From the NCBI RefSeq assembly GCF_055900595.2, contig NZ_CM148325.1: a stretch of 64,000 bases of DNA. The stretch is one strand, 5' to 3'. This document shows positions 8,729-64,000 of this stretch, in pieces; positions within the stretch are counted from its first letter, which is position 1, and every line of letters begins with the position of its first letter. The notes under the pieces are model-generated. The model was not told the origin of the DNA. It did not search any database and saw only the letters and a program-made list of their open reading frames with translations. The position numbers were made by a program, and so were the translations under genes.

Positions 8729-8741
8729 TCAGGAGAAAATC

Positions 8742-9035: not shown

Positions 9036-9045
9036 GGAATTTACC

Positions 9046-10224: not shown

Positions 10225-10225
10225 T

Positions 10226-10447: not shown

Positions 10448-10448
10448 T

Positions 10449-10646: not shown

Positions 10647-10656
10647 GGCATAACGA

Positions 10657-11857: not shown

Positions 11858-11953
11858 AAGCGAAGCTTATACATATCTTTTACATCAGCAATCTATTGTT
11901 AATCTCCAATCAATGTTACGTTGTCATCTCACTCATGCTTTGGAGGTAGTGAT

Positions 11954-12133: not shown

Positions 12134-12198
12134 TTTATTTATTCATATATGAAAACAATGTAACCAATATTCGAATTGAAGAACTGAAAGAACACCAA

Positions 12199-12220
12199 GC
12201 CGCCTGATGGCGGTTTTTTC
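12199..12220 (+). terminator. Rho-independent terminator upstream of xis
   Basis: GCCGCC-TGAT-GGCGG hairpin followed by TTTTTT. Confidence 0.45.
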
Positions 12221-12246
12221 TTGCGTGTAATTGCGGAGACTTTGCG

Positions 12247-12465
12247 ATGTACTTGACACTTCAGGAGTGGAACGCACGCCAGCGACGCCCAAGAAGCCTT
12301 GAAACAGTTCGTCGATGGGTACGCGAGTGCAGGATATTCCCTCCTCCGGTTAAGGATGGAAGAGAGTATCTGTTCCACGAATCAGCGGTAAAGGTTGACT
12401 TAAATCGACCAGTAACAGGTAGCCTTTTGAAGAGGATCAGAAATGGGAAGAAGGCGAAGTCATGA
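12247..12465 (+). CDS. xis: Excisionase
   Basis: 72 aa, MYLTLQEWNARQRRPRSLETVRRW..., lambda Xis. Confidence 0.92.
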   Translation: MYLTLQEWNARQRRPRSLETVRRWVRECRIFPPPVKDGREYLFHESAVKVDLNRPVTGSLLKRIRNGKKAKS

Positions 12466-13513
12466 GCGCCGGGATTTACCCCCTAACCTTTATATAAGAA
12501 ACAATGGATATTACTGCTACAGGGACCCAAGGACGGGTAAAGAGTTTGGATTAGGCAGAGACAGGCGAATCGCAATCACTGAAGCCATACAGGCCAACAT
12601 TGAGTTATTTTCAGGACACAAACACAAGCCTCTGACAGCGAGAATCAACAGTGATAATTCCGTTACGTTACATTCATGGCTTGATCGCTACGAAAAAATC
12701 CTGGCCAGCAGAGGAATCAAGCAGAAGACACTCATAAATTACATGAGCAAAATTAAAGCAATAAGGAGGGGTCTGCCTGATGCTCCACTTGAAGACATCA
12801 CCACAAAAGAAATTGCGGCAATGCTCAATGGATACATAGACGAGGGCAAGGCGGCGTCAGCCAAGTTAATCAGATCAACACTGAGCGATGGATTCCGAGA
12901 GGCAATAGCTGAAGGCCATATAACAACAAACCCTGTCGCTGCCACTCGCGCAGCAAAATCAGAGGTAAGGAGATCAAGACTTACGGCTGACGAATACCTG
13001 AAAATTTATCAAGCAGCAGAATCATCACCATGTTGGCTCAGACTTGCAATGGAACTGGCTGTTGTTACCGGGCAACGAGTTGGTGATTTATGCGAAATGA
13101 AGTGGTCTGATATCGTAGATGGATATCTTTATGTCGAGCAAAGCAAAACAGGCGTAAAAATTGCCATCCCAACAGCATTGCATGTTGATGCTCTCGGAAT
13201 ATCAATGAAGGAAACACTTGATAAATGCAAAGAGATTCTTGGCGGAGAAACCATAATTGCATCTACTCGTCGCGAACCGCTTTCATCCGGCACAGTATCA
13301 AGGTATTTTATGCGCGCACGAAAAGCATCAGGTCTTTCCTTCGAAGGGGATCCGCCTACCTTTCACGAGTTGCGCAGTTTGTCTGCAAGACTCTATGAGA
13401 AGCAGATAAGCGATAAGTTTGCTCAACATCTTCTCGGGCATAAGTCGGACACCATGGCATCACAGTATCGTGATGACAGAGGCAGGGAGTGGGACAAAAT
13501 TGAAATCAAATAA
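12443..13513 (+). CDS. int: Tyrosine integrase, lambda Int
   Basis: 356 aa; N-terminal arm-binding region and catalytic domain as in lambda Int; overlaps xis. Confidence 0.95.
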   Translation: MGRRRSHERRDLPPNLYIRNNGYYCYRDPRTGKEFGLGRDRRIAITEAIQANIELFSGHKHKPLTARINSDNSVTLHSWLDRYEKILASRGIKQKTLINYMSKIKAIRRGLPDAPLEDITTKEIAAMLNGYIDEGKAASAKLIRSTLSDGFREAIAEGHITTNPVAATRAAKSEVRRSRLTADEYLKIYQAAESSPCWLRLAMELAVVTGQRVGDLCEMKWSDIVDGYLYVEQSKTGVKIAIPTALHVDALGISMKETLDKCKEILGGETIIASTRREPLSSGTVSRYFMRARKASGLSFEGDPPTFHELRSLSARLYEKQISDKFAQHLLGHKSDTMASQYRDDRGREWDKIEIK

Positions 13514-13586
13514 TGATTTTATTTTGACTGATAGTGACCTGTTCGTTGCAACAAATTGATAAGCAATGCTTTTTTATAATGCCAAC

Positions 13587-13601
13587 TTAGTATAAAAAAG
13601 C
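13587..13601. other. Lambda att core (prophage-host junction, BOP-prime type) with int-proximal P-prime arm at 13514..13586
   Basis: Reverse complement reads GCTTTTTTATACTAA; flanking arm reads like lambda P-prime arm. Confidence 0.8.
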
Positions 13602-13647
13602 AGGCTTCAACGGATTCATTTTTCTATTTCATAGCCCGGAGCAACCT

Positions 13648-14931
13648 GTGAACACATTTTCAGTTTCCCGTCTGGCGCTGGCATTGGCTTTTGGCGTGAC
13701 GCTGACCGCCTGTAGCTCAACACCGCCCGATCAACGTCCTTCTGATCAAACCGCGCCTGGTACCTCTTCTCGCCCGATTCTGTCGGCAAAAGAAGCGCAG
13801 AATTTCGATGCTCAACACTATTTTGCGTCCCTGACGCCAGGTGCTGCAGCGTGGAATCCTTCCCCGATTACTCTGCCTGCGCAACCTGACTTTGTTGTCG
13901 GCCCGGCGGGTACTCCGGGTGTAACGCATACCACGATTCAGGCGGCGGTAGATGCGGCAATTATCAAGCGCACCAACAAGCGCCAGTATATTGCCGTGAT
14001 GCCTGGTGAGTATCAGGGAACGGTGTATGTCCCTGCTGCTCCGGGTGGAATTACTCTGTACGGTACAGGTGAAAAACCGATTGATGTGAAGATTGGGCTT
14101 TCCCTTGATGGGAGCATGAGCCCTGCCGACTGGCGTCACGACGTCAACCCGCGCGGCAAATATATGCCAGGTAAACCAGCGTGGTATATGTACGATAGCT
14201 GCCAGAGCAAACGCAGCGACAGTATCGGCGTTCTGTGTTCTGCGGTCTTCTGGTCACAAAACAACGGCCTGCAACTGCAAAACCTGACCATCGAAAACAC
14301 GCTGGGTGATAGCGTAGATGCGGGTAACCATCCGGCGGTGGCACTGCGTACTGATGGCGACAAAGTGCAGATCAATAACGTCAACATTCTCGGTCGTCAG
14401 AATACATTCTTTGTCACCAACAGTGGTGTGCAAAACCGTCTGGAAACCAACCGTCAGCCGCGTACTCTGGTGACCAACAGTTACATTGAAGGGGATGTGG
14501 ATATCGTTTCTGGTCGCGGCGCAGTGGTGTTCGATAATACCGAATTCCGCGTGGTGAACTCACGTACTCAGCAAGAAGCGTATGTGTTTGCACCGGCTAC
14601 GCTGTCTAACATCTATTACGGTTTCCTCGCCGTAAACAGCCGCTTCAATGCTTCCGGTGATGGCGTGGCGCAACTGGGCCGCTCGCTGGATGTTGATGCC
14701 AATACCAACGGTCAGGTGGTGATCCGTGATAGCGCCATCAACGAAGGTTTTAACACGGCTAAACCGTGGGCCGATGCGGTGATTTCCAATCGCCCGTTTG
14801 CGGGTAATACTGGCAACGTTGATGATAACGACGAAGTACAGCGTAATCTGAATGACACTAACTACAACCGCATGTGGGAATACAATAACCGCGGCGTGGG
14901 TAGCAAAGTGGTTGCAGAGGCGAAGAAGTAA
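13648..14931 (+). CDS. ybhC: Pectinesterase-family lipoprotein YbhC
   Basis: GTG start, lipoprotein signal (LTAC), 427 aa. Confidence 0.9.
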   Translation: MNTFSVSRLALALAFGVTLTACSSTPPDQRPSDQTAPGTSSRPILSAKEAQNFDAQHYFASLTPGAAAWNPSPITLPAQPDFVVGPAGTPGVTHTTIQAAVDAAIIKRTNKRQYIAVMPGEYQGTVYVPAAPGGITLYGTGEKPIDVKIGLSLDGSMSPADWRHDVNPRGKYMPGKPAWYMYDSCQSKRSDSIGVLCSAVFWSQNNGLQLQNLTIENTLGDSVDAGNHPAVALRTDGDKVQINNVNILGRQNTFFVTNSGVQNRLETNRQPRTLVTNSYIEGDVDIVSGRGAVVFDNTEFRVVNSRTQQEAYVFAPATLSNIYYGFLAVNSRFNASGDGVAQLGRSLDVDANTNGQVVIRDSAINEGFNTAKPWADAVISNRPFAGNTGNVDDNDEVQRNLNDTNYNRMWEYNNRGVGSKVVAEAKK

Positions 14932-14946
14932 AAGCGATTAACTTTT

Positions 14947-15150
<204 letters not shown>

Positions 15151-47960: not shown

Positions 47961-49529
47961 TTAGCGTGCCGGCTGAGTAGTCGTGGAAGACTGCTCAAAG
48001 TGATAGCGACCGGTTTTCAGGCTGCTTGGGCCGAGGCGTGCAAACTTGAACATTAAGAACAATTCTGCCACCAGGAACAGGGTATACAGGCCACAAATCA
48101 GCACCATCGAGAAGATGAGGTCGCCTGCGGTCAGTGACGAGTTCGCTACAGCTGTCGGCAGCACTTCACCGATAGCCCAAGGTTGGCGACCATATTCAGC
48201 CACGAACCAGCCCGCTTCTACAGCAATCCACGGCAGCGGAATACCGTACAGTGCGGCGCGCAGCAGCCATTTTTTCTCGCCAATACGGTTGCGGATGACA
48301 CTCCAGAAAGAGAGCGCGATGATTGCCAGCAGCAGGAAGCCACACGCCACCATGATACGGAACGCGAAGTACAGCGGCGCTACACGTGGAATGGAGTCTT
48401 TGGTTGCCTGTTGAATCTGCGCTTCAGTTGCATCCGCCACGTTTGGCGTATAGCGTTTCAGCAGCAGACCGTAACCGAGGTCTTTCTTCATGCTATTGAA
48501 CTGGTCACGAACCGCCTGGTCAGTAGAACCAGAACGCAGTTGCTCGAGCAGAGAGTACGCCTTCATCCCGTTACGGATGCGTTCTTCATGCTGCACCATC
48601 AGCTCTTTCAGGCCGATAACCGGGGTATCCACGGAACGCGTTGCAATGATGCCCAGCGCGTAAGGGATCTGGATCGCAAATTTGTTCGTCTCCTCTTCCT
48701 GATCAGGAATGCCGAACAGAGTAAAGGCAGCAGGTGCAGGTTGCGTTTCCCACTCGGCTTCAATAGCAGCCAGTTTGGTTTTCTGCACGTCGCCCATTTC
48801 ATAACCAGATTCATCACCCAGAACAATAACAGACAGAACGGCAGCCATACCGAAGCTGGCAGCGATAGCAAAGGAGCGTTTAGCAAAGGCGAAGTCACGA
48901 CCTTTCAACATATACCATGCGCTGATACCGAGGATGAACATCGCGCCAGTCACATAACCAGACGCTACAGTGTGAACGAATTTCACCTGAGCAACCGGGT
49001 TAAGCACCAGCTCGGAGAAGCTCACCATCTCCATACGCATAGTTTCAAAGTTGAAATCGGATGCGATTGGGTTTTGCATCCAGCCGTTCGCAACCAGAAT
49101 CCACAGTGCGGACAGGTTTGAACCAAGCGCCACCAGCCAGGTGACACACATATGCTGAACTTTACCCAGACGATCCCAACCGAAGAAGAACAGACCTACA
49201 AAGGTGGATTCGAGGAAGAAGGCCATCAGACCTTCGATTGCCAGCGGCGCACCGAAGATATCCCCTACATAGTGGGAATAGTAAGACCAGTTAGTCCCGA
49301 ACTGGAACTCCATGGTCAGACCGGTTGCCACACCCAGAGCGAAGTTGATACCAAACAACTTGCCCCAGAACTTGGTCATATCTTTATAAATCTGTTTGCC
49401 GGAAAGGACGTAGACCGTTTCCATAATGGCCAGCAGGAACGCCATACCGAGCGTCAGTGGCACAAAAAGGAAGTGGTACATCGCGGTCAAGGCAAACTGT
49501 AAGCGCGACAGTTCGACTATATCTAACAT
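47961..49529 (-). CDS. cydA: Cytochrome bd-I oxidase subunit I
   Basis: 522 aa from [24 protein letters not shown]. Confidence 0.93.
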
Positions 49530-49866
49530 CATGACTCCTTGCTCATCGCATGAAGACTCCGAGAGTGAACCCCGTTAGAAAGGGTCACACGCATGCCCCA
49601 ATACAAAATTATTTGCTCGCCTCTATCGCTGTCTTTTCCTCAAAAGTGGAAAAGACAATGATAAAAAAGTTACAAATATGTTAATGAATAAACCAAATTG
49701 ATCCCGTAATTATATTACGCCGCAAAATCCTTACAATAAACAGGTTTTTATTGAGCAAATTTGCATTTTTCGACAGTGATCAATTTATAGCGAAATTGTC
49801 ACGCCCCCACCAATTTGATCTACGACAATTTATCGTGTTTTGCAGATTTTTTTCAAGAATTAAAAA

Positions 49867-49880
49867 TTGATTAATATCAA
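49867..49880. promoter_or_regulatory. FNR-type box in the cydA upstream regulatory region
   Basis: TTGATTAATATCAA (TTGAT-N4-ATCAA) inside the long AT-rich cydA leader. Confidence 0.5.
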
Positions 49881-50332
49881 AATCAATCGAATATGTTAAT
49901 TATGTATAAATCATAGACCATTGGTAATTTTATTGTTAATTTATTGTGAAATATTTACGTAACACAATTATTACAATAAAAAGACATAGATAAAAAACCA
50001 GTGTTTTATTTAACAGAATCGCCTTATCAACTTTTTATAATACCAATTGATTAGAGTAGCCAATTTGTTGCTATTTTACATAACATATTTTTATCAAAGT
50101 TAATTGATTGTTGCCTTTATGAGCATCGCCGTAAGACCGCCATGTTATTGTTTCATTTGTAATAATCACCAATAAGTATCGATGAGAGAGATATCGCTTA
50201 ACAGAGGCGACTGTGTCTGCATGAACACAGGCACTTTCGTCTGATAAACGAAAAATGAGCGATTTTTGCAAGTTAGTTTTTCTATAGCCGGGTACGCTGA
50301 GCGCCTCGCTTGATTACAATGAGGTTGCTGCC

Positions 50333-51277
50333 ATGGGTCTTGATAATATAGGTTATGTTGTCAATCGCTTCTCTGGTTGGCCATCAAATGATCCTCTAAA
50401 AACAGATAACGAATCAATGACATCACCCGTGACTGTGCAGGTAATAAAGTTGATTGCCGCCATCCTTGACCCACATCGGATAGTCGTTGGTATCGATACA
50501 CTTTATACAACGCAGCGCAAAACATTTACCTCAGAGGGTCAACAACTCATTGAATCAGCATTGAAAACACTTAATGTGATGAATTTAAATAACCTGGAAA
50601 CAGATCGCGATGAGGAGGGTAACTATCTGGCTTTTGGATATAACGTTGACACTCCTGACAGAATAACCGTTTCTGCTTATAATGAAAAAAAACCTTTCTG
50701 TTATGGCCAATGTCTTTTAATACAGGATGAAGAACCAGATTTATTTAACCTGGTAAAAATTAAAACCTTTGAAGCCAGGCATAATTATGTTTCTAAATTG
50801 ATGAGCGATCCGGAATTTATGTTTAAATTCAGTTATAGCACCCAACAAAATAGATTAGAACCTCATCTTCTGGTTCCCACTTATTTCCCTCTAAAAACAA
50901 ACCAACCGGTTACGCTAGAGGATGTACTGATACTTTATCGTTTCTTTAAAATGAATGGCGATTTTAATATATTAACATCAGATGAATACATGAGTATCAT
51001 GACACCTCTGATGAAGTGTGAGCGTAGTGTCCACGACCATAACAGGTATGTGACGGGCAAAGATGCTCTTCTTCTGGACAATCCTCCGTCTGGTAACCAG
51101 ATATATTTCCATATTTCCCCTGACGAATCAGCAACACTTGTCCTTTATTTTTCAGACAATAACCTTGAATCCTTCGTCTTTGAAAATGATATTCCGAGCC
51201 AGTATCGACATTTCAAAATGTTTACCAATTTAGCACTAGTTATTGATCAGTTAACCGACGCCAATCAAATACTTTAA
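50333..51277 (+). CDS. Hypothetical protein (314 aa), AT-rich
   Basis: Long ORF with GAGGT SD; no recognised motif, TM segment or signal peptide. Confidence 0.6.
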   Translation: MGLDNIGYVVNRFSGWPSNDPLKTDNESMTSPVTVQVIKLIAAILDPHRIVVGIDTLYTTQRKTFTSEGQQLIESALKTLNVMNLNNLETDRDEEGNYLAFGYNVDTPDRITVSAYNEKKPFCYGQCLLIQDEEPDLFNLVKIKTFEARHNYVSKLMSDPEFMFKFSYSTQQNRLEPHLLVPTYFPLKTNQPVTLEDVLILYRFFKMNGDFNILTSDEYMSIMTPLMKCERSVHDHNRYVTGKDALLLDNPPSGNQIYFHISPDESATLVLYFSDNNLESFVFENDIPSQYRHFKMFTNLALVIDQLTDANQIL

Positions 51278-51356
51278 TTTTCTATACAGCCCTGTGTAAA
51301 ATATTGCTAATCAGTGCCCGGGGTTGATTTTTATTCCTCACGGTGATATTTAAATC

Positions 51357-51779
51357 ATGACCCCATCTCAGCTCTCTTTTAATACTCTTCCTGTCAATGC
51401 AACATGCACTTCAGAGATAACAGTAAACACACAAAAATTCTCTGACATCCTCTACTCAGTGGGGTATTCCCTAAAGGATCTGGCTTATCTGAGCAGATGT
51501 CTTGCATCATTACACCCGACACTCGCCAAAAACATTTATGAAACGGAAAATCTCAGCGATCAAAAATTACTTTATATAGATTGCCGTAGTACAAATGAAA
51601 TCAAGATAAATATCTTTTTTGGTCAGCAACGAGAAGGATTAATTGAAATTAGTTCTGACACAGTCATTTTTTCGATACTGTCTTCATTGATTGACTCAGC
51701 TATTTCTGAACATCGACATCAAATCACCATTAACGATTCAAATAATTCTGAACTATTTTATGAGGATTATACTGATTAA
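51357..51779 (+). CDS. Hypothetical protein (140 aa), AT-rich
   Basis: ORF directly downstream of the 314-aa ORF, same strand; no recognised motif. Confidence 0.55.
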   Translation: MTPSQLSFNTLPVNATCTSEITVNTQKFSDILYSVGYSLKDLAYLSRCLASLHPTLAKNIYETENLSDQKLLYIDCRSTNEIKINIFFGQQREGLIEISSDTVIFSILSSLIDSAISEHRHQITINDSNNSELFYEDYTD

Positions 51780-52321
51780 ATCCACTCTGTGCGAACCTGT
51801 CCTGCATTTATGCCAGAAGTATTAGAATCTTTGATTAACGTTACTCGTACTGGTAGCACCTTCATGTGCCTCTCTTTTTTACGAACAATCAAAAGAACTA
51901 ACAAAGGGCATAATTCGTATAAATCATTAACCATTTGTTATATTCAACATTTTTTTACATTAAGCAGAGATGAATTGCAGTGAAATTCAAGTTAAATTTT
52001 ACAAAATGTATTACTCATGGCTAAAAAATCTCCCCAAAATGCAAATTAGAAGTTGATCACAATTATCTCAATACATCAAATAAAGTTAATTTTAAAAATT
52101 TAACATTCATGACATTAGTTGACATAACACGCTGAATTAAAATGAGAATTTAAAAACACACTTTAAACAATCATTTCCCGAAAGACATTTTGAAAATAGA
52201 TCAATTGCAACATTACGGTCAGATAAAGACACTCCTCTGATATTAAACCTGTGCCGTTATGAACGGCCATAAATACGACGTGTGTAACTTAATTTACTCT
52301 CTGTCTTACAAAGGATTACCC

Positions 52322-52771
52322 ATGAAGAAAGCAACACTTGTGATTGGCGTTATTGGCGCGGACTGCCATGCAGTAGGCAATAAAGTTCTGGACCGCGTTT
52401 TTAGCAACCATGACTTCAGAGTCATTAATCTGGGCGTAATGGTCAGCCAGGACGAATATATTGATGCTGCCATTGAAACTGGCGCTGACGCGATTGTCGT
52501 CTCCTCTATCTATGGGCATGGCGATATCGATTGTCTGGGCATGCGCGAACGCTGCATCGAGCGTGGGCTGGGTAACATCCTGCTCTATGTGGGCGGTAAC
52601 CTGGTGGTCGGAAAACATGACTTCGCTGACGTGGAAACCAAGTTCAAAGAGATGGGATTTGATCGCGTCTTTTCCCCAAGTCATGACTTAGAAGATGTTT
52701 GTCAGCTGATGGCCCACGATATCAACCAACGTCATGACGTTGATACTCGCATTCTTGAAGAGGCAATCTGA
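52322..52771 (+). CDS. Glutamate mutase sigma (B12-binding) subunit
   Basis: 149 aa; cobalamin-binding DxHxxG motif (DCHAVG); followed by L and E subunits. Confidence 0.85.
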
Positions 52772-54159
52772 TGCAAATCGTCTCTGTCGATATTGGATCG
52801 ACGTGGACCAAAGCAGCCCTCTTCACCCGGGAGGGGGACGCGTTAACGTTGGTTAACCACGTTCTGACCCCAACCACCACCCATCATCTGGCGAAGGGGT
52901 TTTTCTCCAGCCTGGACCAGGTGTTAAACGTAGATGATGCCCTCCCCCTGTTAAACAGTGGTGAGGTTGCATTGAAGTATTCCTCCTCTGCCAAAGGTGG
53001 GCTGGCGGTTGCCGCAATGGGATTAGTGCCTTCTATCACTCTGGAAACCGCGAAAGTAACCGCTCACTCTGCGGGTGCTAAAATTGCGCAATATTACGCC
53101 TACAAGCTGAACCGCCGTGATATCCAGGCACTGGAAGAAACGCAGCCCGATATTCTCTTGTTCACCGGCGGCACCGACGGCGGAGAAGAAAGCTACGGAC
53201 TGAATAACGCCCGTGTGCTGGCAGAATCCAAACTCGACTGCGCCATTATTTATGCCGGAAACCGGGATATTCAGGACAAGGTGCAGGAGATCCTCGGGCA
53301 TAAAGACCTGACCATCGTCGACAACGTTCTGCCCGATCTTGACCATCCGAACCCTTTAGCTGCACGCCAGGCTATCTGCGACATATTCCTTAAACGCATC
53401 GTTAAAGGGAAAGGGCTGGATGTCATTGTTGATAAAACAGGCGAAGAACCAATGCCGACACCATGGACGGTCTTTGAACTGGTTAAGGCAATCAGTAACG
53501 TCGATCACAGCTGGAAAGAGTTCATGCTGATCGACATGGGCGGCGCAACCACCGATGTCTATTCCGCCTGTGCCAACACGCTCTCGCCCGACACTGTTTT
53601 ACATGGCGTACCGGAACCCTTCGTAAAACGGACGGTGGAAGGCGATCTGGGAATGCGCGTCTCGGCAATGGTGGTTGGTGAAAGTGCGAAAGAGTTAGTC
53701 AGTGTGAATTTTGCTCAGCAACCCGCACAGTTGGACGCTTTTTATCATTACCTCCGTCATCTAGTCGCTCATCCCGACTACTTACCCGCGAATGCAGATG
53801 AAAAATATTTCGATACCGTCCTGGCCGGACTGTGTGTGGGTTATGCCACCGAAAGACATGCGGGCACCAAAAAAGAGGTCTGCACCTGCGTCGGCAATGT
53901 CGATTTACAGATGGGACGTGACCTGACAACCGTGCGTAAAGTCGTGGGTTCCGGCGGATGGCTCTCGCGTGCCAGTCAGTTCGATATGCATCGCTGGTTG
54001 AAATACCGCGAGTTAAACGACGACGGTAAACGCATTCTCTTACCGACCGAATTTGAATATTACCGCGATTCCCGGGGGCTATTACCACTGCTGGCAAACG
54101 TCGCCAGAGTCGATCCGCTGGCCGCCGCGCGCACCAGTATTCAATGCTTAACCCTATAA
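52771..54159 (+). CDS. Glutamate mutase-associated L protein (MutL/GlmL-type ATPase chaperone)
   Basis: 462 aa, ASKHA-type N-terminus (VDIGSTWTKAA), between S and E subunits. Confidence 0.8.
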   Translation: MQIVSVDIGSTWTKAALFTREGDALTLVNHVLTPTTTHHLAKGFFSSLDQVLNVDDALPLLNSGEVALKYSSSAKGGLAVAAMGLVPSITLETAKVTAHSAGAKIAQYYAYKLNRRDIQALEETQPDILLFTGGTDGGEESYGLNNARVLAESKLDCAIIYAGNRDIQDKVQEILGHKDLTIVDNVLPDLDHPNPLAARQAICDIFLKRIVKGKGLDVIVDKTGEEPMPTPWTVFELVKAISNVDHSWKEFMLIDMGGATTDVYSACANTLSPDTVLHGVPEPFVKRTVEGDLGMRVSAMVVGESAKELVSVNFAQQPAQLDAFYHYLRHLVAHPDYLPANADEKYFDTVLAGLCVGYATERHAGTKKEVCTCVGNVDLQMGRDLTTVRKVVGSGGWLSRASQFDMHRWLKYRELNDDGKRILLPTEFEYYRDSRGLLPLLANVARVDPLAAARTSIQCLTL

Positions 54160-54177
54160 CAATTAAGGCTGCAATCA

Positions 54178-55623
54178 ATGGAACTTCGAAATAAGAAATT
54201 AACCCATGACGAATTCATGACCGAGCGGCAACAGGTATTGAAAACCTGGGAAACCGGCAAGGATGTTGAAAACTTTGAAGATGGCGTTAAATACCAACAA
54301 ACCATTCCTGAGCATAAACGCTTCTCTCTTGCCCTGCTGAAAGCAGACAAGGAAGGTAAAACCCTTAGCCAACCGCGCGCAGGCGTGGCGCTGATGGACG
54401 AACACATCGAACTACTGAAAACACTACAAGAAGAGTGCGATCTGCTGCCGAGCACTATCGATGCATATACCCGTCTGAATCGGTACGAAGAAGCGGCTGT
54501 AGGGATTAAAAAATCCATCGAAGCCAGAACCTCTAAACTGAACGGTTTACCGGTAGTTAACCACGGCGTCGCAGCTTGCCGTCGCCTCACCGAAACTCTG
54601 CAAAAACCGCTACAGATCCGCCACGGCACGCCAGATGCGCGTCTGCTGGCTGAAATCTCGATGGCCAGCGGCTTTACCAGTTATGAAGGCGGCGGCATTT
54701 CCTACAATATTCCGTATGCCAAGCGCGTAACGCTGGAAAAATCGATCCGCGACTGGCAGTACTGCGATCGTTTAATGGGGATGTACGAAGAACACGGGAT
54801 CCGCATCAACCCCGAACCGTTTGGCCCACTAACGGGTACGCTGATCCCGCCGTTTATCTCGCACTCTATCGCAATAATCGAAGGCTTGCTGGCACTGGAA
54901 CAGGGTGTGAAGTCTATCACCGTTGGTTATGGTCAGGTCGGTAGCCTGACGCAGGATGTTGCGGCGATCCAGTCTCTGCGGGAACTTGCACACGAATACT
55001 TTCAGAGCTATGGCTATACCGACTACGAATTAAGTACCGTGTTTCACCAGTGGATGGGCGGCTTTCCGGAAGACGAATCGAAAGCGTTCGCCATTATCTC
55101 CTGGGGTGCTGCCGTCGCGGGGATGTCTGGTGCTACCAAAGTCATCACCAAAAGTCCGCACGAAGCCTGGGGCATCCCGACTGCTGCTGCCAACATTCAG
55201 GGGCTAAAAGCCTCCCGCCAGATGCTCAACATGGTCAACGAGCAGAAATTCCCGCCGTGCCCGGCGGTTGAACTAGAAATTGAACTGATTAAGAGCGAGG
55301 TTCGCGCGGTACTGAACAAAGTGTTCGAACTGGGTAATGGTGATATTGCGCGCGGTACGGTGCTGGCATTTGAAGCGGGCGTACTGGATGTGCCGTTTGC
55401 GCCAGCCGCCTGCAACGCAGGCAAAATTCTTCCGGTCCGTGACAACACTGGCGCGATTCGCGTACTGGAGGCCGGAGCCGTTCCATTGCCAAAAGATATT
55501 CTCGACCTCCACCACGATTACGTTGCTGAACGCGCGCGCTTTGAAGGACGCCAACCGACATTCCAGATGGTTGTAGATGACATCAATGCTGTATCCCACA
55601 GTAAATTAATAGGAAGACCATAA
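54178..55623 (+). CDS. glmE: Glutamate mutase epsilon (catalytic) subunit
   Basis: 481 aa, TIM-barrel mutase signature; coupled to methylaspartase. Confidence 0.88.
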   Translation: MELRNKKLTHDEFMTERQQVLKTWETGKDVENFEDGVKYQQTIPEHKRFSLALLKADKEGKTLSQPRAGVALMDEHIELLKTLQEECDLLPSTIDAYTRLNRYEEAAVGIKKSIEARTSKLNGLPVVNHGVAACRRLTETLQKPLQIRHGTPDARLLAEISMASGFTSYEGGGISYNIPYAKRVTLEKSIRDWQYCDRLMGMYEEHGIRINPEPFGPLTGTLIPPFISHSIAIIEGLLALEQGVKSITVGYGQVGSLTQDVAAIQSLRELAHEYFQSYGYTDYELSTVFHQWMGGFPEDESKAFAIISWGAAVAGMSGATKVITKSPHEAWGIPTAAANIQGLKASRQMLNMVNEQKFPPCPAVELEIELIKSEVRAVLNKVFELGNGDIARGTVLAFEAGVLDVPFAPAACNAGKILPVRDNTGAIRVLEAGAVPLPKDILDLHHDYVAERARFEGRQPTFQMVVDDINAVSHSKLIGRP

Positions 55624-56864
55624 TGAAAATAAAACAGGCCCTTTTTACCGCTGGCTACTCCTCATTCTATTTCGATGATCAGCAGGCGATAAAAAACGGA
55701 GCGGGTCACGACGGTTTTTTTTATACCGGGGAGCCAGTAACACAGGGGTTTAACGCCGTACGTCAGGCCGGGGAGTGCGTTTCGGTTCAGTTGATTCTGG
55801 AAAACGGTGCGGTCGCCGTAGGCGACTGTGCTGCCGTACAGTATTCCGGGGCAGGTGGTCGCGATCCACTGTTCCTCGCAGAGCACTTTATTCCGTTCCT
55901 CAACGACCATATCAAGCCATTACTGGTAGGCCGCGATGTGGATGCTTTCCTGCCGAATGCCCGTTTCTTCGACAAATTGCGTATTGACGGCAACTTGCTA
56001 CATACCGCCGTGCGCTACGGATTATCACAGGCGCTGCTTGATGCTACCGCGCTGGCAACCGGCCGTCTGAAAACTGAAGTGGTCTGTGATGAATGGCAGT
56101 TGCCACGCGTGGCGGAATCCATTCCATTATTTGGTCAGAGCGGCGACGATCGATATATCGCTGTCGATAAGATGATCCTTAAGGGCATCGACGTGCTGCC
56201 CCATGCGCTGATTAATAACGTCGAAGAGAAACTGGGCTTTAAAGGTGAAAAACTGCGCGAATATGTCCGCTGGCTGTCGGATCGCATTCTGAGCAAGCGC
56301 ACCAGCGCACGCTACCACCCTACCCTGCACATCGATGTATACGGCACTATTGGTCTGATCTTCGATATGGATCCGCTTCGCTGTGCGCAATACATCGCCA
56401 GTCTGGAAAAAGAGGCGCAAGGCCTGCCGCTCTACATTGAGGGGCCGGTCGATGCCGGTAACAAGCCCGATCAAATCCGCCTGCTGACCGCGATTACCAA
56501 AGAGCTGACGCGCCTCGGTTCCGGCGTGAAAATCGTGGCCGATGAATGGTGTAACACCTACCAGGATATTGTTGATTTCACTGATGCCGCCAGTTGCCAC
56601 ATGGTGCAAATCAAAACCCCGGATCTGGGCAGTATTCACAACATCGTCGATGCAGTTCTTTATTGCAACAGCCACAGCATGGAAGCGTACCAGGGCGGCA
56701 CCTGCAATGAAACTGATGTCAGTGCCCGCACCTGTGTCCACGTCGCCCTTGCTGCTCGCCCCATGCGTATGCTGGTAAAACCAGGGATGGGCTTTGACGA
56801 AGGCCTCGATATCGTCTTCAACGAAATGAATCGTACTATCGCGCTGTTGCAGGCTAAGGATTAA
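55623..56864 (+). CDS. 3-methylaspartate ammonia-lyase (enolase superfamily)
   Basis: 413 aa; start overlaps glmE stop. Confidence 0.88.
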   Translation: MKIKQALFTAGYSSFYFDDQQAIKNGAGHDGFFYTGEPVTQGFNAVRQAGECVSVQLILENGAVAVGDCAAVQYSGAGGRDPLFLAEHFIPFLNDHIKPLLVGRDVDAFLPNARFFDKLRIDGNLLHTAVRYGLSQALLDATALATGRLKTEVVCDEWQLPRVAESIPLFGQSGDDRYIAVDKMILKGIDVLPHALINNVEEKLGFKGEKLREYVRWLSDRILSKRTSARYHPTLHIDVYGTIGLIFDMDPLRCAQYIASLEKEAQGLPLYIEGPVDAGNKPDQIRLLTAITKELTRLGSGVKIVADEWCNTYQDIVDFTDAASCHMVQIKTPDLGSIHNIVDAVLYCNSHSMEAYQGGTCNETDVSARTCVHVALAARPMRMLVKPGMGFDEGLDIVFNEMNRTIALLQAKD

Positions 56865-56867
56865 CAA

Positions 56868-58238
56868 ATGGCTCGTTCTTTTAAAGTCTTATCGCCAACG
56901 GCAATCCTCGGGTATGGATTCCCGGAAGAGAGCTTCCGCAAAGCGATGGCAGAATCGCCCGATCTGATCGCCGTTGATGCAGGCTCTTCCGATCCTGGCC
57001 CCCACTACCTCGGGGCGGGCAAACCGTTTACCGATCGCGCAGGGGTCAAGCGCGATCTACGCTATATGATCACCGCAGGCGTGCAAAATAATATACCGGT
57101 AGTGATCGGAACGGCCGGCGGTTCTGGTGCCGCTCCACACCTGGAGTGGTGCCGAGAAATAATTCATGAGATTGCCCGGGAAGAGCACCTCGCGTTCTCG
57201 ATGGCGCTGATCCCGGCAGACGTTGACAAAGCCATCGTCCACCAGGCGCTGGATAACGGCAAAATCACGGCGCTGGATTTTGTCCCGCCGTTAACCCACG
57301 ACGCGATTGACGAAAGTACGTATATCGTCGCGCAAATGGGCATCGAACCCTTCCAGCAGGCGCTGAAAGAAGGCGCGCAAGTGGTGCTGGGCGGGCGCGC
57401 TTACGACCCGGCCTGCTTTGCTGCGCTACCGATCATGCAAGGCTTTGATGAAGGTCTGGCGCTGCATTGTGGGAAAATCCTTGAATGCGCGGCAATCGCC
57501 GCAACGCCCGGCTCAGGCTCTGACTGTGCGATGGGCATCATTGATGACAACGGCTTTACGCTGAAGACATTTAATCCGAAGCGTAAATTTACCGAAACGT
57601 CAGCGGCTGCACACACACTGTATGAGAAATCCGATCCCTACTTTCTGCCAGGACCTGGCGGCGTGCTAAACCTGAAAGGTTGCACATTTAAAGCGATCAA
57701 TGATGGCGAAGTTTACGTCAGCGGTTCTAAGCATGAAGAAACGCCCTATGCCCTGAAACTGGAAGGTGCGCGGCGGGTGGGTTTCCGCTGTTTGACCATC
57801 GCCGGAACGCGCGACCCGATCATGATCGCCGGGATCGATAACATCATCGATGAAGTCAAAACCAGCGTTTCGCGTAATCTGTCCTTAGACGATGACAGCA
57901 TTCGCATCAATTTCCACCTGTACGGCAAAAACGGGGTGATGGGCGACCATGAACCGATGCAAACTGCCGGGCATGAGCTGGGGATTGTCCTTGATGTAGT
58001 TGCACCGACCCAGGATATTGCCAATAGCGTTTGCTCGCTGGTGCGCTCTACCATGCTGCACTACGGCTATGAAAACCGCATCGCTACCGCAGGCAACCTG
58101 GCGTTCCCGTTCTCCCCTTCTGATATCCAGGGCGGGCCGGTATACGAATTTTCCATATATCACCTGATTGAAGCCAACGACGCTCTGCGTTTTGATTTCC
58201 ATATTGAACAGGTGACGCCAGAAGGAGTTCAGGCATGA
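56868..58238 (+). CDS. DUF1446 (AtuA-like) family protein, function unknown
   Basis: 456 aa; N-terminal pattern recalled for AtuA-like proteins; coupled to next ORF. Confidence 0.65.
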   Translation: MARSFKVLSPTAILGYGFPEESFRKAMAESPDLIAVDAGSSDPGPHYLGAGKPFTDRAGVKRDLRYMITAGVQNNIPVVIGTAGGSGAAPHLEWCREIIHEIAREEHLAFSMALIPADVDKAIVHQALDNGKITALDFVPPLTHDAIDESTYIVAQMGIEPFQQALKEGAQVVLGGRAYDPACFAALPIMQGFDEGLALHCGKILECAAIAATPGSGSDCAMGIIDDNGFTLKTFNPKRKFTETSAAAHTLYEKSDPYFLPGPGGVLNLKGCTFKAINDGEVYVSGSKHEETPYALKLEGARRVGFRCLTIAGTRDPIMIAGIDNIIDEVKTSVSRNLSLDDDSIRINFHLYGKNGVMGDHEPMQTAGHELGIVLDVVAPTQDIANSVCSLVRSTMLHYGYENRIATAGNLAFPFSPSDIQGGPVYEFSIYHLIEANDALRFDFHIEQVTPEGVQA

Positions 58239-58552
58239 AACAGTCAATTGTCTCACTGGCGCAAGTCATTCGTTCGAAAAATGCCGGACCTTACGAACTG
58301 GTTTTAGATATTTTATTTAAAACCAAAGAAAACTATGAGCGAGTAAAATCATCAGGGCAATTAACCCCAGAACTGATTGCGCGCTTATATCATGTTGAAC
58401 CTGACTTTATTCATCGTATTGTCTGGTTTGATCCTTCTAACGCAGTAAAAATTGTCATGCCACGAGATATTATCTCCGGGAATGTAGGTGACAATGATGT
58501 CTATGGCGCACAGCAACATGCACCTTTATTAAATATGAGTTTCGATTTGTAA
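58235..58552 (+). CDS. DUF4387-like small protein, partner of the DUF1446 protein
   Basis: 105 aa; start overlaps upstream stop. Confidence 0.55.
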   Translation: MKQSIVSLAQVIRSKNAGPYELVLDILFKTKENYERVKSSGQLTPELIARLYHVEPDFIHRIVWFDPSNAVKIVMPRDIISGNVGDNDVYGAQQHAPLLNMSFDL

Positions 58553-58712
58553 AAATCCGAACACTTTTAGCCAACTGACATCCCGTCACTTATTGCAGCT
58601 CAACACTTCAGCTATTTGTAAGGTTGTTATAGCAGGTAGATGCCTGAATCTCTATTCAGGCATCCACTTCTCCTGATTCTGATTTATCGCCGTGCACCTG
58701 ATGGAGGAAAAA

Positions 58713-59993
58713 ATGAAGAAAATAAGTTTAACCACGATGATTCTTTTGGCGCTGGTACTTGGAATGATTATCGGCGTAGTGCTCAATAACACTGCTTCAC
58801 CGGAAACAGCAAAACTCTATGCGCAAGAAATATCGATATTCACGACGATTTTCTTACGACTGATAAAAATGATTATCGCTCCGTTAGTGGTCTCTACCCT
58901 GGTGGTAGGTATTGCTAAAATGGGCGATGCCAAAGCCCTTGGTCGTATTTTTTCTAAAACACTCTTTTTATTTATTTGCGCCTCATTGCTGTCAATTGCC
59001 TTAGGCTTGATAACGGTAAATTTCTTCATGCCAGGCACAGGAATTAATTTTGTTGCACACGGTGCCGAAACCACCGGAGTGGTCGCGTCAGAACCCTTTA
59101 CACTAAAAGTATTTATTTCGCATGCTTTCCCCACCAGCATTGTCGATGCCATGGCGCACAATGAAATTTTGCAAATCGTGGTGTTCTCAATTTTCCTCGG
59201 CTGTAGCCTGACGGCGATTGGTGAGAAAGGCAGCGCCATCGTTCACGCCTTAGATTCGCTGGCACATGCCATGTTAAAGCTCACTGGCTACGTCATGCTC
59301 TTCGCTCCCCTGACCGTATTCGCCGCTATTTCAGCATTGATTGCTGAACGAGGACTGGCAGTTATGGTGAGCGCCGGGATCTTTATGGGTGAATTTTATT
59401 TCACCATGTTATTACTTTGGGTGCTGCTTATCGGTCTGGCCATCGTTTATGTCGGCCCCTGCATCAGACGCCTGACCCGCGCCCTTTCTGAACCCGCCCT
59501 GCTGGCATTTACCACATCCAGTTCTGAAGCTGCTTTTCCGGGAACGCTTGAAAAACTGGAGCAATTTGGCGTTTCCCCCAAAATTGCCAGCTTTGTCTTA
59601 CCCATTGGCTACTCATTTAATCTCGTTGGATCAATGGCCTACTGCTCCTTCGCCACAGTTTTCATCGCCCAGGCCTGCAATATCCATTTATCCATCGGTG
59701 AGCAAATCACCATGCTGTTGATCCTGATGTTGACCTCGAAAGGAATGGCTGGCGTACCACGCGCCTCAATGGTGGTTATCGCCGCCACGCTCAACCAGTT
59801 CAATATTCCGGAAGCGGGGCTGATCTTGCTGATGGGCGTTGATCCGTTCCTTGATATGGGGCGTTCCGCGACAAACGTCATGAGCAACGCAATGGGCGCT
59901 GCGATGGTGAGTCGGTGGGAAGGCGAACATTTCGGCGAGGGTTGTCGGGGTAAAGCATTAAAACCCAATGAATCGAACGTTGCTCTGCCCTGA
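58713..59993 (+). CDS. Dicarboxylate/amino acid:cation symporter (GltP/DctA family)
   Basis: GGAGG SD; polytopic membrane protein with DAACS-type motifs. Confidence 0.8.
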   Translation: MKKISLTTMILLALVLGMIIGVVLNNTASPETAKLYAQEISIFTTIFLRLIKMIIAPLVVSTLVVGIAKMGDAKALGRIFSKTLFLFICASLLSIALGLITVNFFMPGTGINFVAHGAETTGVVASEPFTLKVFISHAFPTSIVDAMAHNEILQIVVFSIFLGCSLTAIGEKGSAIVHALDSLAHAMLKLTGYVMLFAPLTVFAAISALIAERGLAVMVSAGIFMGEFYFTMLLLWVLLIGLAIVYVGPCIRRLTRALSEPALLAFTTSSSEAAFPGTLEKLEQFGVSPKIASFVLPIGYSFNLVGSMAYCSFATVFIAQACNIHLSIGEQITMLLILMLTSKGMAGVPRASMVVIAATLNQFNIPEAGLILLMGVDPFLDMGRSATNVMSNAMGAAMVSRWEGEHFGEGCRGKALKPNESNVALP

Positions 59994-60100
59994 GGGGGAT
60001 CTTAAGAAATCAGAAGCCAATGACTACGCATTTTTATAAGCCGGATCATGAAGTTAGACGGCAATTAAGTAACACTAACGTTTAAGGTGAAAAGTGAAAT

Positions 60101-61753
60101 ATGTCCAAACCATTTATCTGGCAAGAACCGTTTCTACAAAATAAAGACGGTACAGAATATACATTAATTAGCGATCAACATATTACAGTAACGGAATTAG
60201 ACGGCGAAGAAGTAATAAAAATCGCTCCTGAAGCATTAACGCTGCTTGCCCGGCAGGCATTTTATGAAGCCTCTTTTTTCTTACGTTCCGCTCATTTGCA
60301 ACAGGTCGCCAGCATTCTTAACGATCCGCAGGCCAGCAGTAATGATAAATACGTTGCGTTGCAGTTATTACGTAATGCTGAAGTCTCAGCAAAAGGGGTA
60401 TTACCCAACTGTCAGGATACCGGCACCGCAACTATTGTTGCCAGTAAAGGGCAACAGATATGGACGGGAGGTAACGACGCTGAAGCCTTAAGCAAAGGCA
60501 TTTACAGTACTTTCCAGGAAAATAATCTGCGCTTTTCACAAAATGCGCCGCTGGATATGTATACCGAAGTCAATACGCAAACCAATCTTCCGGCGCAGAT
60601 TGATATCAGCGCTGTCGCTGGTAATGAGTACCATTTTCTCTGTGTTAATAAAGGGGGCGGCTCCGCCAATAAAGCTGCACTTTATCAGGAAACCAAATCC
60701 TTATTGCAACCAGAAAAACTGACCGCATTTTTAATCGACAAAATGAAATCGTTGGGCACGGCCGCCTGCCCGCCCTACCACATCGCCTTTGTCGTCGGAG
60801 GGCTTTCAGCCGATCAAACCTTAAAAGTTGCCAAGCTGGCCTCTACGAAATATTACGACAATTTGCCCACCAGCGGAAACGAGCAGGGACAAGCATTCCG
60901 TGATATTGAGCTGGAAAAAGCGTTGCTCGAAGCCAGTCAGCAATTTGGTATTGGTGCGCAATTTGGGGGTAAATATTTCGCTCATGATATTCGCGTCATT
61001 CGTCTGCCGCGTCACGGTGGCTCCTGCCCGATAGCTATGGCGCTCTCCTGTTCTGCCGATCGCAATATCAAAGCCAAAATTAACAAGCACGGTATCTGGC
61101 TGGAAAAACTCGAACACAATCCGGGGCAATATATTCCAGCCTCATTGCGGGAAGAAAATCACTCGCTACATGTACACCTGGATCTAAACCGTCCGTTGCG
61201 TGACGTGATGCAGGATCTCGCCAGATTACCGGTAGGTACCCGCGTGTCGTTAAGTGGTCCCATCGTAGTGGCGCGCGATATCGCCCACGCAAAAATAAAA
61301 GCGCGGCTGGATAGCGGCGAATCGATGCCGGATTACCTGAAGCATCATATTGTCTATTACGCTGGCCCGGCGAAAACACCGGAGAACATGGCCTGCGGTT
61401 CACTGGGTCCAACCACGGGCGGTCGAATGGACGGTTATGTCGAAACCTTCCAGGCGGCTGGCGGCAGTCTGGTAATGTTATCGAAAGGTAACCGCAGCCA
61501 GCAGGTCACCGATGCCTGTCACAAACATGGCGGCTTCAATCTGGGAAGTATTGGCGGTGCAGCTGCGTTACTGGCGCAAGAATATGTCAAAAGTCTGCGT
61601 TGCCTGGAATACCCGGAGCTGGGTATGGAGGCGGTGTGGATGATGGAAGTGGAAAATCTGCCCGCATTCATCCTGGTTGATGATAAAGGCAATAATTTCT
61701 TTAGCCAGTTTGAGCAGCAACACCGCTGCGCCAGTTGCCCTGCGGGACATTAA
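60101..61753 (+). CDS. fumD: Class I (Fe-S) fumarate hydratase paralogue, likely mesaconase
   Basis: 550 aa, strongly FumA-like along full length; name fumD is from memory of the O157 mesaconase. Confidence 0.8.
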
Positions 61754-61762
61754 GGAAAATGA

Positions 61763-62365
61763 ATGGAAGCGCGAATTTCAACTGAACGGCATGTGCAGCG
61801 CCAGCAGAAATTGAAGGAACAGGTCGATACGCGCGTCGCGGCGGCGATAGAGAAAAAAGGGATCTTGATTGTTTTCACCGGCAACGGCAAAGGGAAATCC
61901 ACTGCCGCGTTTGGTACTGTAACGCGCGCGGTGGGCCATGGCAAAACGGTGGGGGTTGCGCAGTACATCAAGGGGCAATGGGACAACGGCGAATACAATC
62001 TTCTCCAGCCGCTGGGAGTGGAGTTTCATATTATGGGAACCGGTTTTACCTGGGAGACACAGAACCGGCAAGCGGATATCGATGCGGCGAAAGAGGTCTG
62101 GTCGGAAAGCAAACGGATGCTGGCTGACAAGCGTTACGACTTAGTGGTGCTTGATGAGCTCACCTATATGCTGGCTTACCATTATCTGGATACAGAAGAA
62201 GTGATCACTTCTCTGCAAAACCGTCCGGCACAACAAAGTGTCATTGTCACCGGACGCGGTTGCCACAGTCAGATATTAAAAATGGCGGATACGGTAAGTG
62301 AAATCCGCCCCGTCAAACATGCTTTTGATAACGGCATTCAGGCCCAGCCGGGGATCGACTGGTAA
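61763..62365 (+). CDS. Corrinoid adenosyltransferase (BtuR/CobA family)
   Basis: 200 aa; P-loop GNGKGKSTAAFG; strongly BtuR-like. Confidence 0.88.
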   Translation: MEARISTERHVQRQQKLKEQVDTRVAAAIEKKGILIVFTGNGKGKSTAAFGTVTRAVGHGKTVGVAQYIKGQWDNGEYNLLQPLGVEFHIMGTGFTWETQNRQADIDAAKEVWSESKRMLADKRYDLVVLDELTYMLAYHYLDTEEVITSLQNRPAQQSVIVTGRGCHSQILKMADTVSEIRPVKHAFDNGIQAQPGIDW

Positions 62366-62368
62366 TAA

Positions 62369-62400
62369 CTGCGCCTGGCATCCCGCCAGGCGCAGGTTTT
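62369..62400. terminator. Bidirectional terminator between convergent genes
   Basis: 10-bp stem CTGCGCCTGG/CCAGGCGCAG with T-run. Confidence 0.5.
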
Positions 62401-63304
62401 ACATCTCCTGCGGTACGACCGATTTCGCCAGCAACCATTCACGAAATTGCTGCAAGTGCGGAGAGTCAGACTTCTCTTCCTGCCACGTCATAATAAAACG
62501 ATTACCGGTACGAATAGGCACATCACAGGGAATCACCATATCGCCACTATCCAAATCATGTTGAATAGCGAACCGTGGTAACAGCGCCACGCCGAGATTA
62601 GAGCGCACGGCGGCAATCAGCATTGAAAGCAAATCGAAACGTGGTCCGTTATTGACCAGCGGACTGCTAACGCCAGATAAAGCAAACCACTCTTCCCAGC
62701 CAGTAATACGGGTGCTTTGATGCAGAAGTGGTAACTCAGTAAGCAGTTCTGCCACTGACAGTTTTTGATCGGACATTGCAAGCAAACTGCCGCTGCATAC
62801 CGGCAAAATCTCCTCTTCAAAGAGATATTCTACTTCCGCCCAGGGCGCGCAAAAATTTTCGCGCATAATGACAGCATCGTACTCCCGATTAAGAAAATCG
62901 CCGTTATTAGCTAAAGAATGAATATTAACAATAATATCGGGATGTAACTTTGTGAATTCATGTAAATTTGGGATTAACCAGTGGGTACTAAAAGTAGGAT
63001 TAACGGCAAGTTCAATAACCTGAACCGTAGGCTGCCATGTCATAATCGTATTGGTATCGCGCTCCAGCTTATTTAATGTTTCTTTTACTATCCCCAGGTA
63101 ATACTTCCCTGCATCATTAAGAAAAATGCGTTTTTTAGAGTGTGAAAATAACGGAGTATGTAAAAATTCCTCCAGCGCACTTACTTGTCTGAATACAGCA
63201 CTTTGGGTTAACGCTAACTCCTCTGCCGCTCTGGTATAACTTTCATGTCGTGCGACGACCTCAAAAGTCACCAGCAGCTCCGTTTTAGGTATTTTTCCTC
63301 GCAT
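62399..63304 (-). CDS. LysR-family transcriptional regulator (likely regulator of the island operon)
   Basis: N-terminal HTH (ESYTRAAEELALTQSAVFRQV); start taken at second ATG. Confidence 0.8.
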   Translation of the reverse strand: MRGKIPKTELLVTFEVVARHESYTRAAEELALTQSAVFRQVSALEEFLHTPLFSHSKKRIFLNDAGKYYLGIVKETLNKLERDTNTIMTWQPTVQVIELAVNPTFSTHWLIPNLHEFTKLHPDIIVNIHSLANNGDFLNREYDAVIMRENFCAPWAEVEYLFEEEILPVCSGSLLAMSDQKLSVAELLTELPLLHQSTRITGWEEWFALSGVSSPLVNNGPRFDLLSMLIAAVRSNLGVALLPRFAIQHDLDSGDMVIPCDVPIRTGNRFIMTWQEEKSDSPHLQQFREWLLAKSVVPQEM

Positions 63305-63517
63305 AATGCCGTCCGTGAAAAAATAACAATTCAAAAATTATTTTATAAAAAACAGTAGCACTAATGAATATCATAATTCAAATAAACAAACCAGTCAGCT
63401 ATATGTCTAACCAGGAAAATAAAGTGACAATAATCCTAAAACAGGAATTTCACCTCAGTTATCCGCATGCAATACTTTAAAGCTATTATTGCAAGAATAT
63501 TATTCATATACATGAAT

Positions 63518-63641
63518 ATACTCTAAATAAGTCAAGTTGCAGGAAGGGAACAAATAATGAATATCCAGAAGCTTACATAAGTAAGTGACCTGGGTGAGCG
63601 AACATCGATGCAGCACATGCAACTTGAATTATGACAAGTAT
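63518..63641. repeat. ERIC element (second copy, with internal substitution/insertion)
   Basis: Shares both arms with the 17481..17605 copy. Confidence 0.65.
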
Positions 63642-63892
63642 ACAATGATAAATTTATATACCCTATGTTATATATTATCTATGTCCGGTTAAATTGAATG
63701 AGTCATAGCCTTAAAAGACTTCACAAAAGATAATTCCTCTTTAACAATAAGCCAGATTTACCACTTGTAAAACTTGCTATCGCTGCATACACTACGCGCG
63801 TTTTCTTTCCCTTTTGCTGGCTGCTGACCGGAAAGACAAAATTACCCTCGCAATACAGGGGGTTGATTAACGTCTATATTTCAGGACAGCGT

Positions 63893-64000
63893 TATGCATC
63901 ATCTTTCAAGGCTTGATAAAGCCTTTCTGCGCAAAGGGATCCAACTTTCCCGCGCCAACAATATTGTTTCATTATGTCGTCCATCAGGAGCCAGTGCCCG
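63893..64000 (+). CDS. Possible 5-prime end of an unidentified gene running off the window
   Basis: ATG with AGGA upstream and open frame to window end; not recognised. Confidence 0.25.

Follow-up and report, generated by a model that had tools for sequence, protein, structure and literature searches.

The methylaspartate (mesaconate) pathway of Clostridium tetanomorphum and C. cochlearium and the glutamate fermentation/FumD cluster of Escherichia coli O157:H7 are the described systems closest to the locus analyzed here, an island of ten genes at positions 52322 to 63304 of a 64,000-nucleotide stretch (the window) of NCBI RefSeq contig NZ_CM148325.1, assembly GCF_055900595.2. The clostridial cluster relies on a citramalate lyase of the citrate-lyase type and on a mesaconase that is split (PMC4682846). 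For the O157:H7 cluster, published by Kronen and Berg in 2015, FumD was biochemically characterized and found to prefer mesaconate 2- to 3-fold over fumarate; the DUF1446 gene was listed as coding for a protein whose function was unknown, and the fate of citramalate was explicitly left unclear (PMC4682846). More recently, two PDB entries (9ERQ and 9EVF) have appeared whose chains were named by their depositors 'Citramalate lyase, subunit A (cmlA)' and 'subunit B (cmlB)', and in a 2026 preprint cmlAB of Raoultella planticola, received as a gift from the Berg laboratory, serves in vivo as a functioning citramalate lyase; the preprint states for the Raoultella enzyme the conversion of (S)-citramalate to pyruvate and acetate (bioRxiv 10.64898/2026.01.16.699985). 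On the basis of this preprint, we infer that R. planticola is the source organism of the 9ERQ and 9EVF chains. The island is thus already known: its cluster was published in 2015, the structure of its lyase was released in 2025, and the enzyme was in use in 2026.

As seen in Table 1, the locus very probably represents the E. coli version of this enterobacterial 'glutamate fermentation' island, encoding a complete five-step route from glutamate to pyruvate and acetate, with a putative LysR-type activator site upstream of its first gene. It carries the same ten genes as the O157:H7 cluster, all present and collinear, at the same site between cydA and sucD, with 96.7% DNA identity over 15.1 kb and enzyme proteins that are 98 to 100% identical. 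The window is a rarer sequence variant, since no more than 10 of the 1140 records that matched reach 99% identity to it. The open reading frame list gives nine close-set genes on the plus strand and one on the minus strand. All ten are full length, with lengths equal to those of their RefSeq counterparts, and their translations are free of internal stops and frameshifts. An earlier reading of the window from its letters alone (the original prediction) had described a B12-dependent methylaspartate route in a block of eight genes upstream of cydA, and had called it a recognized accessory trait of some E. coli lineages. The eight genes are indeed there, intact, where they had been placed; cydA lies to their left on the minus strand, which puts the block upstream of it, and the accessory trait is the one published in 2015 (PMC4682846). 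However, the block holds ten genes, and the two that had been overlooked encode an AtuA/DUF1446 and a DUF4387 protein.

In the proposed route, the symporter would bring in the substrate, presumably glutamate, and GlmS and GlmE, together with adenosylcobalamin, would convert L-glutamate into (2S,3S)-3-methylaspartate. CobO would adenosylate the imported corrinoid, and GlmL would act as an accessory or reactivating protein of the mutase. The methylaspartate ammonia-lyase would then release ammonia to give mesaconate, which FumD, an oxygen-labile 4Fe-4S hydratase, would turn into (S)-citramalate. Finally, the two-subunit CmlAB would cleave citramalate directly to pyruvate and acetate, involving neither a coenzyme A ester nor the acyl-carrier machinery of the clostridial citrate-lyase-type enzyme. 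The glmSLE-mal-cmlAB genes would be read from a promoter just downstream of a TGA-N7-TCA box, the putative site where a LysR-type activator, most likely the island's own, turns the operon on. Sequence comparison places these enzymes in their predicted families, and the activities of FumD and CmlAB were demonstrated by others on orthologs.

The B12-dependent character of the route is borne out by the family scans (Pfam and NCBIfam, bit scores compared with curated cut-offs), in which GlmS, GlmL, GlmE, the ammonia-lyase, FumD and the CobA-type adenosyltransferase all score over the cut-offs of equivalog-level hidden Markov models. DxHxxG is the base-off/His-on cobalamin-binding motif; GlmS retains it, in line with the motif of PDB 1I9C, and together with the E subunit this makes up an adenosylcobalamin-dependent glutamate mutase. 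The ammonia-lyase is near-identical to the crystallized Citrobacter amalonaticus enzyme (PDB 1KKO). FumD, which had been proposed as a FumA-like, likely mesaconase, passes the FumD-type equivalog model and is 98% identical to O157:H7 FumD, the protein on which the activity itself was measured; it is therefore a predicted mesaconase by close identity. The cobO product is 67% identical to K-12 BtuR and is a second copy beside the core btuR gene. All that the island encodes here is adenosylation (CobO) and GlmL, the accessory protein of the mutase; it does not make the corrinoid, and therefore the pathway depends on imported or scavenged B12; de novo cobalamin synthesis is beyond E. coli. No B12 riboswitch or other known RNA was found in positions 49400 to 64000, even at a permissive threshold.

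Next, the two overlooked genes decide whether the route is closed. The original prediction had called the pathway self-contained, but the genes that it listed end at (S)-citramalate. The island is self-contained only through cmlA and cmlB, which would complete the conversion of citramalate to pyruvate and acetate. In a PDB sequence search, CmlA matched chain A of 9ERQ and 9EVF over all 456 residues (E-value 6.5e-293, approximately 93% identity) and CmlB matched chain B over its full length (E-value 5e-57). An AlphaFold (AF2) model of CmlA, built from 19 orthologs, reached a predicted local distance difference test score (pLDDT) of 86 and superposed on 9EVF_A with a template modeling (TM) score of 0.95 and 92% identity in a fold search. 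The same search returned no other solved relative of CmlA beyond 9EVF, the next match having an E-value of 2.7e-3 and a TM score of 0.16. Entry 9EVF, released 2025-10-08, is entitled 'Citramalate lyase - ADP - pyruvate complex', and its pyruvate ligand implies citramalate cleavage. Both subunits are encoded here, by genes adjacent to each other and to mal. Taken with the work of others on orthologs, sequence and model suggest that the AtuA/DUF4387 pair is the E. coli ortholog, known from its sequence, of the R. planticola CmlAB citramalate lyase. Given the ADP in the crystal, the lyase may have a nucleotide-dependent or nucleotide-regulated mechanism, in a fold with no other solved relative.

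The RefSeq and Pfam labels for CmlA and CmlB are still 'acyclic terpene utilization AtuA family protein' and 'DUF4387', and no NCBIfam model names either protein; therefore, the last step of the pathway is hidden from automated annotation. Literature searches for DUF4387 were empty or uninformative. These labels, together with homologs of approximately 56% identity in unrelated dehydrogenase clusters, could be taken to mean that the pair has another function and that citramalate is an end product or is handled elsewhere. We judge this to be very improbable, given that CmlA is approximately 93% identical, end to end, to a chain deposited as citramalate lyase in an entry with bound pyruvate, that the genes are invariably adjacent to mal, and that the function of the ortholog was demonstrated in vivo (bioRxiv 10.64898/2026.01.16.699985). 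The likeness to AtuA of the Pseudomonas acyclic terpene utilization cluster (PF07287) consists of a shared Pfam AtuA domain matched weakly (E-value 7e-20, 72 bits) in a different genomic context, and the family name is uninformative on function here. The current names of cmlA and cmlB are misleading, and recognizing the mislabeled genes as a citramalate lyase closes the pathway that was left open at citramalate in 2015.

As to the other described pathway, the first three steps of the clostridial route have the same chemistry and homologous proteins (GlmS/GlmE, GlmL, methylaspartase and a class I fumarase-type mesaconase). In contrast to the clostridial cluster, the island has CmlAB and a single-chain FumD, and it additionally encodes a LysR regulator, a symporter and an adenosyltransferase. 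Not one of its ten proteins matched the citrate-lyase families (acyl-carrier, transferase and lyase subunits) in Pfam or NCBIfam. The island works like the clostridial pathway with a different enzyme set, the lyase step being filled by the unrelated CmlAB.

The arrangement of these genes was compared across bacteria by scanning one genome per species with the CmlA query, which recovered 61 loci, and by mapping the ten island proteins onto them. The block glmS-glmL-glmE-mal-cmlA-cmlB was uninterrupted in every locus long enough to show it. It was found in Escherichia, Klebsiella, Citrobacter, Salmonella, Enterobacter, Yersinia, Hafnia, Morganella and Budvicia and, at 49 to 70% identity, in Aromatoleum, Azoarcus, Telmatospirillum, Clostridiales, Desulfotomaculum and Dictyoglomaceae, so that mal, cmlA and cmlB are adjacent in Enterobacterales, Betaproteobacteria, Alphaproteobacteria, Firmicutes and Dictyoglomaceae. 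One Bacillota metagenome-assembled genome has cmlAB first and then mal. In the Dictyoglomaceae locus, genes for both subunits of a class I fumarase of the split kind come directly after the six genes, citrate-lyase-type genes are absent from the locus, and eight contiguous genes cover all five reactions. From glmS to cmlB in the window, neighboring genes overlap or lie at most 18 nt apart (cmlA starts 4 nt past the end of mal and overlaps cmlB by 4 nt), which suggests a single operon, glmSLE-mal-cmlAB, with translational coupling. A variable periphery is made up of the symporter gene, fumD, cobO and lysR: fumD and lysR lie on the opposite side of the block in Yersinia, and none of the four peripheral genes is within 10 kb of it in Hafnia, Morganella and Budvicia. 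Most Klebsiella, Citrobacter, Enterobacter and Salmonella loci have approximately 1 to 1.2 kb of extra DNA between the symporter gene and fumD, which E. coli lacks and which probably corresponds to the glutaminase gene that Fig 5 of PMC4682846 shows.

The division into a fixed core and a variable periphery bears on what the pathway consumes. The symporter, presumed to be the substrate importer with glutamate as its putative cargo, obtains similar scores from the model for DctA (C4-dicarboxylate) and the one for GltP (glutamate/aspartate), and stays under both cut-offs. This score, and the occurrence on a Klebsiella plasmid of a hydratase with a CmlAB-like lyase but neither mutase nor ammonia-lyase, would also suit environmental C5-dicarboxylates (mesaconate, citramalate or methylaspartate) as the real substrates, with glutamate mutase as a side entry only. 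Nevertheless, the mutase, its accessory protein, the ammonia-lyase and the lyase are the invariant coupled core across phyla, while the symporter and fumD vary, and an extra adenosyltransferase is sensible only if the mutase is in use; we therefore consider C5-dicarboxylates improbable as the main substrates and retain glutamate. Glutamate is abundant in the gut. Carriers, which are roughly one in five E. coli strains and include most O157:H7, could use the island under anaerobic conditions as an additional source of pyruvate, acetate and ammonia, one that relies on scavenged B12.

The plasmid in question is the conjugative resistance plasmid pHNLC3 of Klebsiella pneumoniae, where a CmlA-like gene (56% identity) and a DUF4387 gene form a pair within a different cluster (locus 5952-15048). 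A divergent LysR gene adjoins the pair, which is followed by genes for two aldehyde dehydrogenases, an SDR protein, an alcohol dehydrogenase and a class I fumarate hydratase. This arrangement points to a role of the hydratase-plus-lyase module in other catabolic routes.

Table 1. Features of the glutamate fermentation island and its surroundings, with positions in the window.
Feature	Position	Strand	Evidence or remark
cydA	47961-49532	-	island upstream of cydA
Diverged cydA upstream (regulatory) region, core-to-accessory transition	49587-49911		identity to K-12
hypA, orphan gene, 314 aa, AT-rich	50333-51277	+	hypothetical in RefSeq
hypB, orphan gene, 140 aa, AT-rich	51357-51779	+	hypothetical in RefSeq
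Invariant box TTGAAAATAGATCAATTGC, TGA-N7-TCA dyad, candidate operator	52190-52208	+	cross-genus conservation
glmS, glutamate mutase small (B12-binding) subunit	52322-52771	+	NF002612, 251 bits vs cut-off 110
glmL (mutL), mutase accessory protein	52771-54159	+	NF040745, 507 bits vs cut-off 475; Pfam MutL
glmE, glutamate mutase catalytic subunit	54178-55623	+	TIGR01503, 859 bits vs cut-off 390
mal, 3-methylaspartate ammonia-lyase	55623-56864	+	TIGR01502, 544 bits vs cut-off 286
cmlA, predicted citramalate lyase large subunit (AtuA/DUF1446)	56868-58238	+	PDB 9ERQ/9EVF chain A
cmlB, predicted citramalate lyase small subunit (DUF4387)	58235-58552	+	PDB 9ERQ/9EVF chain B
SDF-family dicarboxylate/amino-acid:cation symporter	58713-59993	+	Pfam SDF, E-value 2e-102
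fumD, class I (4Fe-4S) fumarase/mesaconase	60101-61753	+	NF011921, 1272 bits vs cut-off 1060
cobO, CobA-type ATP:cob(I)alamin adenosyltransferase	61763-62365	+	TIGR00708, 246 bits
GC-rich hairpin between convergent cobO and lysR	62369-62395		11-pair stem, 9 G-C pairs
LysR-type regulator, GcvA-like	62399-63304	-	Pfam HTH_1 and LysR_substrate; NF008352, 221 bits, under cut-off 288
ERIC-like dispersed imperfect palindrome	63517-63642		25-nt arms, 80% complementary
Start of extra RtcB-family gene, lineage-specific, cut by window end	63894-64000	+	annotated in strain E200086

Regarding the control of the operon, a cross-genus alignment of the region upstream of glmS revealed a spacer free to vary except in three conserved parts: the box TTGAAAATAGATCAATTGC, the element GACACTCC, and a TATTAA hexamer approximately 30 nt downstream of the box. 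The box comprises 19 to 21 invariant nucleotides and lies 132 nt before the glmS start codon. It occurs once in the window, where 0.03 chance matches are expected, and each of 34 loci has a single copy, which in all cases lies upstream of glmS. Klebsiella, Yersinia and Budvicia have versions that differ by one or two changes, and recognizable relatives occur in Telmatospirillum and in the divergent lysR-glmS spacer of Azoarcus. T-N11-A is the generic operator pattern of LysR regulators. The invariant sequence TGAaaatagaTCA upstream of glmS fits this pattern, and the island's LysR protein has both HTH_1 and substrate-binding domains. We propose the TGA-N7-TCA box as a candidate operator of the glm operon, which offers a concrete handle on how the operon is switched on. 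FNR and CRP need six bases between their half-sites; an FNR or CRP site was rejected, as in every species 7 nt, rather than 6, separate the TGA and TCA half-sites. The region contained no more promoter-like and terminator-like sites than shuffled sequence did, and only the hairpin between cobO and lysR, a likely bidirectional terminator, stands out.

Several points weigh against a functional glutamate pathway controlled in this way. No condition was found for expression of the O157:H7 cluster, and neither growth on glutamate nor methylaspartase activity was observed (PMC4682846), leaving the physiological use of the pathway in E. coli unproven. An IS1 element is inserted in fumD of strain E200086 (Mali), the closest sequenced relative, which is 99.9% identical to the window; it lies at locus 12134-12831 (window position approximately 60270) and splits the mesaconase gene, which shows the pathway to be dispensable. 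The CmlAB assignment draws on the names given by PDB depositors and on the use of the enzyme in one preprint, searches of the available literature library having found no primary paper on CmlAB biochemistry, and the ADP in 9EVF comes with no explanation. The role of the box is read from its conservation, and the regulator that binds it is not established because some version of the box persists in Budvicia, Hafnia and Morganella, where no lysR homolog lies within 10 kb. Moreover, the sequence upstream of glmS yielded no good sigma-70 consensus promoter. The DNA flanking glmS on this side is AT-rich (32 to 40% GC), and both features are compatible with the reported lack of induction. Literature searches for expression data on the operon were empty or uninformative.

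Some of these observations, namely the silence of the O157:H7 cluster under any condition tried (PMC4682846), the AT-rich upstream region with no consensus promoter and the disrupted fumD of the nearest relative, together with the presence of mngRAB instead at this site in most E. coli, would fit a cryptic, largely silent remnant that hitchhikes at a cydA-sucD recombination hot spot and has no natural part in glutamate catabolism. We regard such a remnant as unlikely, although less so than the use of C5-dicarboxylates. The ten genes are intact, and the proteins have stayed 98 to 100% identical to those of O157:H7 while the neighboring orphan genes have drifted to 85%, which indicates purifying selection on the enzymes. 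Furthermore, the promoter box is invariant across genera, and earlier work reported methylaspartase activity in many enterobacteria (cited in PMC4682846). Within the preferred reading, a working glutamate island, one may tentatively picture the operon as controlled via the box by a LysR-type activator responding to a signal not yet supplied in the laboratory; such a signal would explain the lack of laboratory induction. This picture, in which expression here may also differ from that in O157:H7 and the lyase may be dependent on or regulated by a nucleotide, is possible but rather doubtful as a whole.

The possible difference in expression comes from the right flank. Homology to O157:H7 extends as far as 63322, which is 18 bp beyond the start codon of lysR on its upstream side, and unrelated DNA follows. 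Positions 63323 to 64000 hold an ERIC (enterobacterial repetitive intergenic consensus) element and then a stand-alone RtcB-family RNA ligase gene, before sucD; the O157:H7 locus lacks the extra RtcB gene. In this lineage, unrelated DNA has taken the place of the lysR promoter region, and therefore expression may differ from that in O157:H7. The ERIC-like element had been taken as the boundary of the island. It is real, but it marks the right side only, is lineage-specific and is absent from the O157:H7 version. Its arms (63517-63541 and 63618-63642) are 76 nt apart in an imperfect palindrome of 126 bp, present at 30764 places in 5425 genomes with a median of 6 detectable copies per E. coli genome, and we take it to match the published ERIC consensus.

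The island occupies the site where K-12 has mngR-mngA-mngB, and 1138 of the 5426 complete E. coli genomes, about one fifth, carry it; mngRAB was found in 3884 of the complete genomes. On the left, the accessory segment starts well before 52322 and includes two orphan AT-rich genes, hypA and hypB, which travel with the island in E. coli (1134 genomes versus 1138 for the island) and are absent from the other genera scanned. Their proteins are 85% identical to the O157:H7 copies, compared with 98 to 100% for the neighboring enzymes. No family match was found for them in Pfam, NCBIfam or PADLOC, and a tblastn search for plasmid copies matched only misfiled E. coli chromosomes. Together with the TGA-N7-TCA box, these two genes and the diverged regulatory region of cydA are small new leads. 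Identity to K-12 is 99 to 100% through cydA to approximately 49586, about 55 bp upstream of the gene, falls to 61 to 88% up to approximately 49911, and is then lost altogether. The diverged segment is 92 to 100% identical to O157:H7. Therefore, strains with the island have another allele of the control region of cydAB. Within this segment, a perfect TTGAT-N4-ATCAA sequence is present at approximately 49868-49881.

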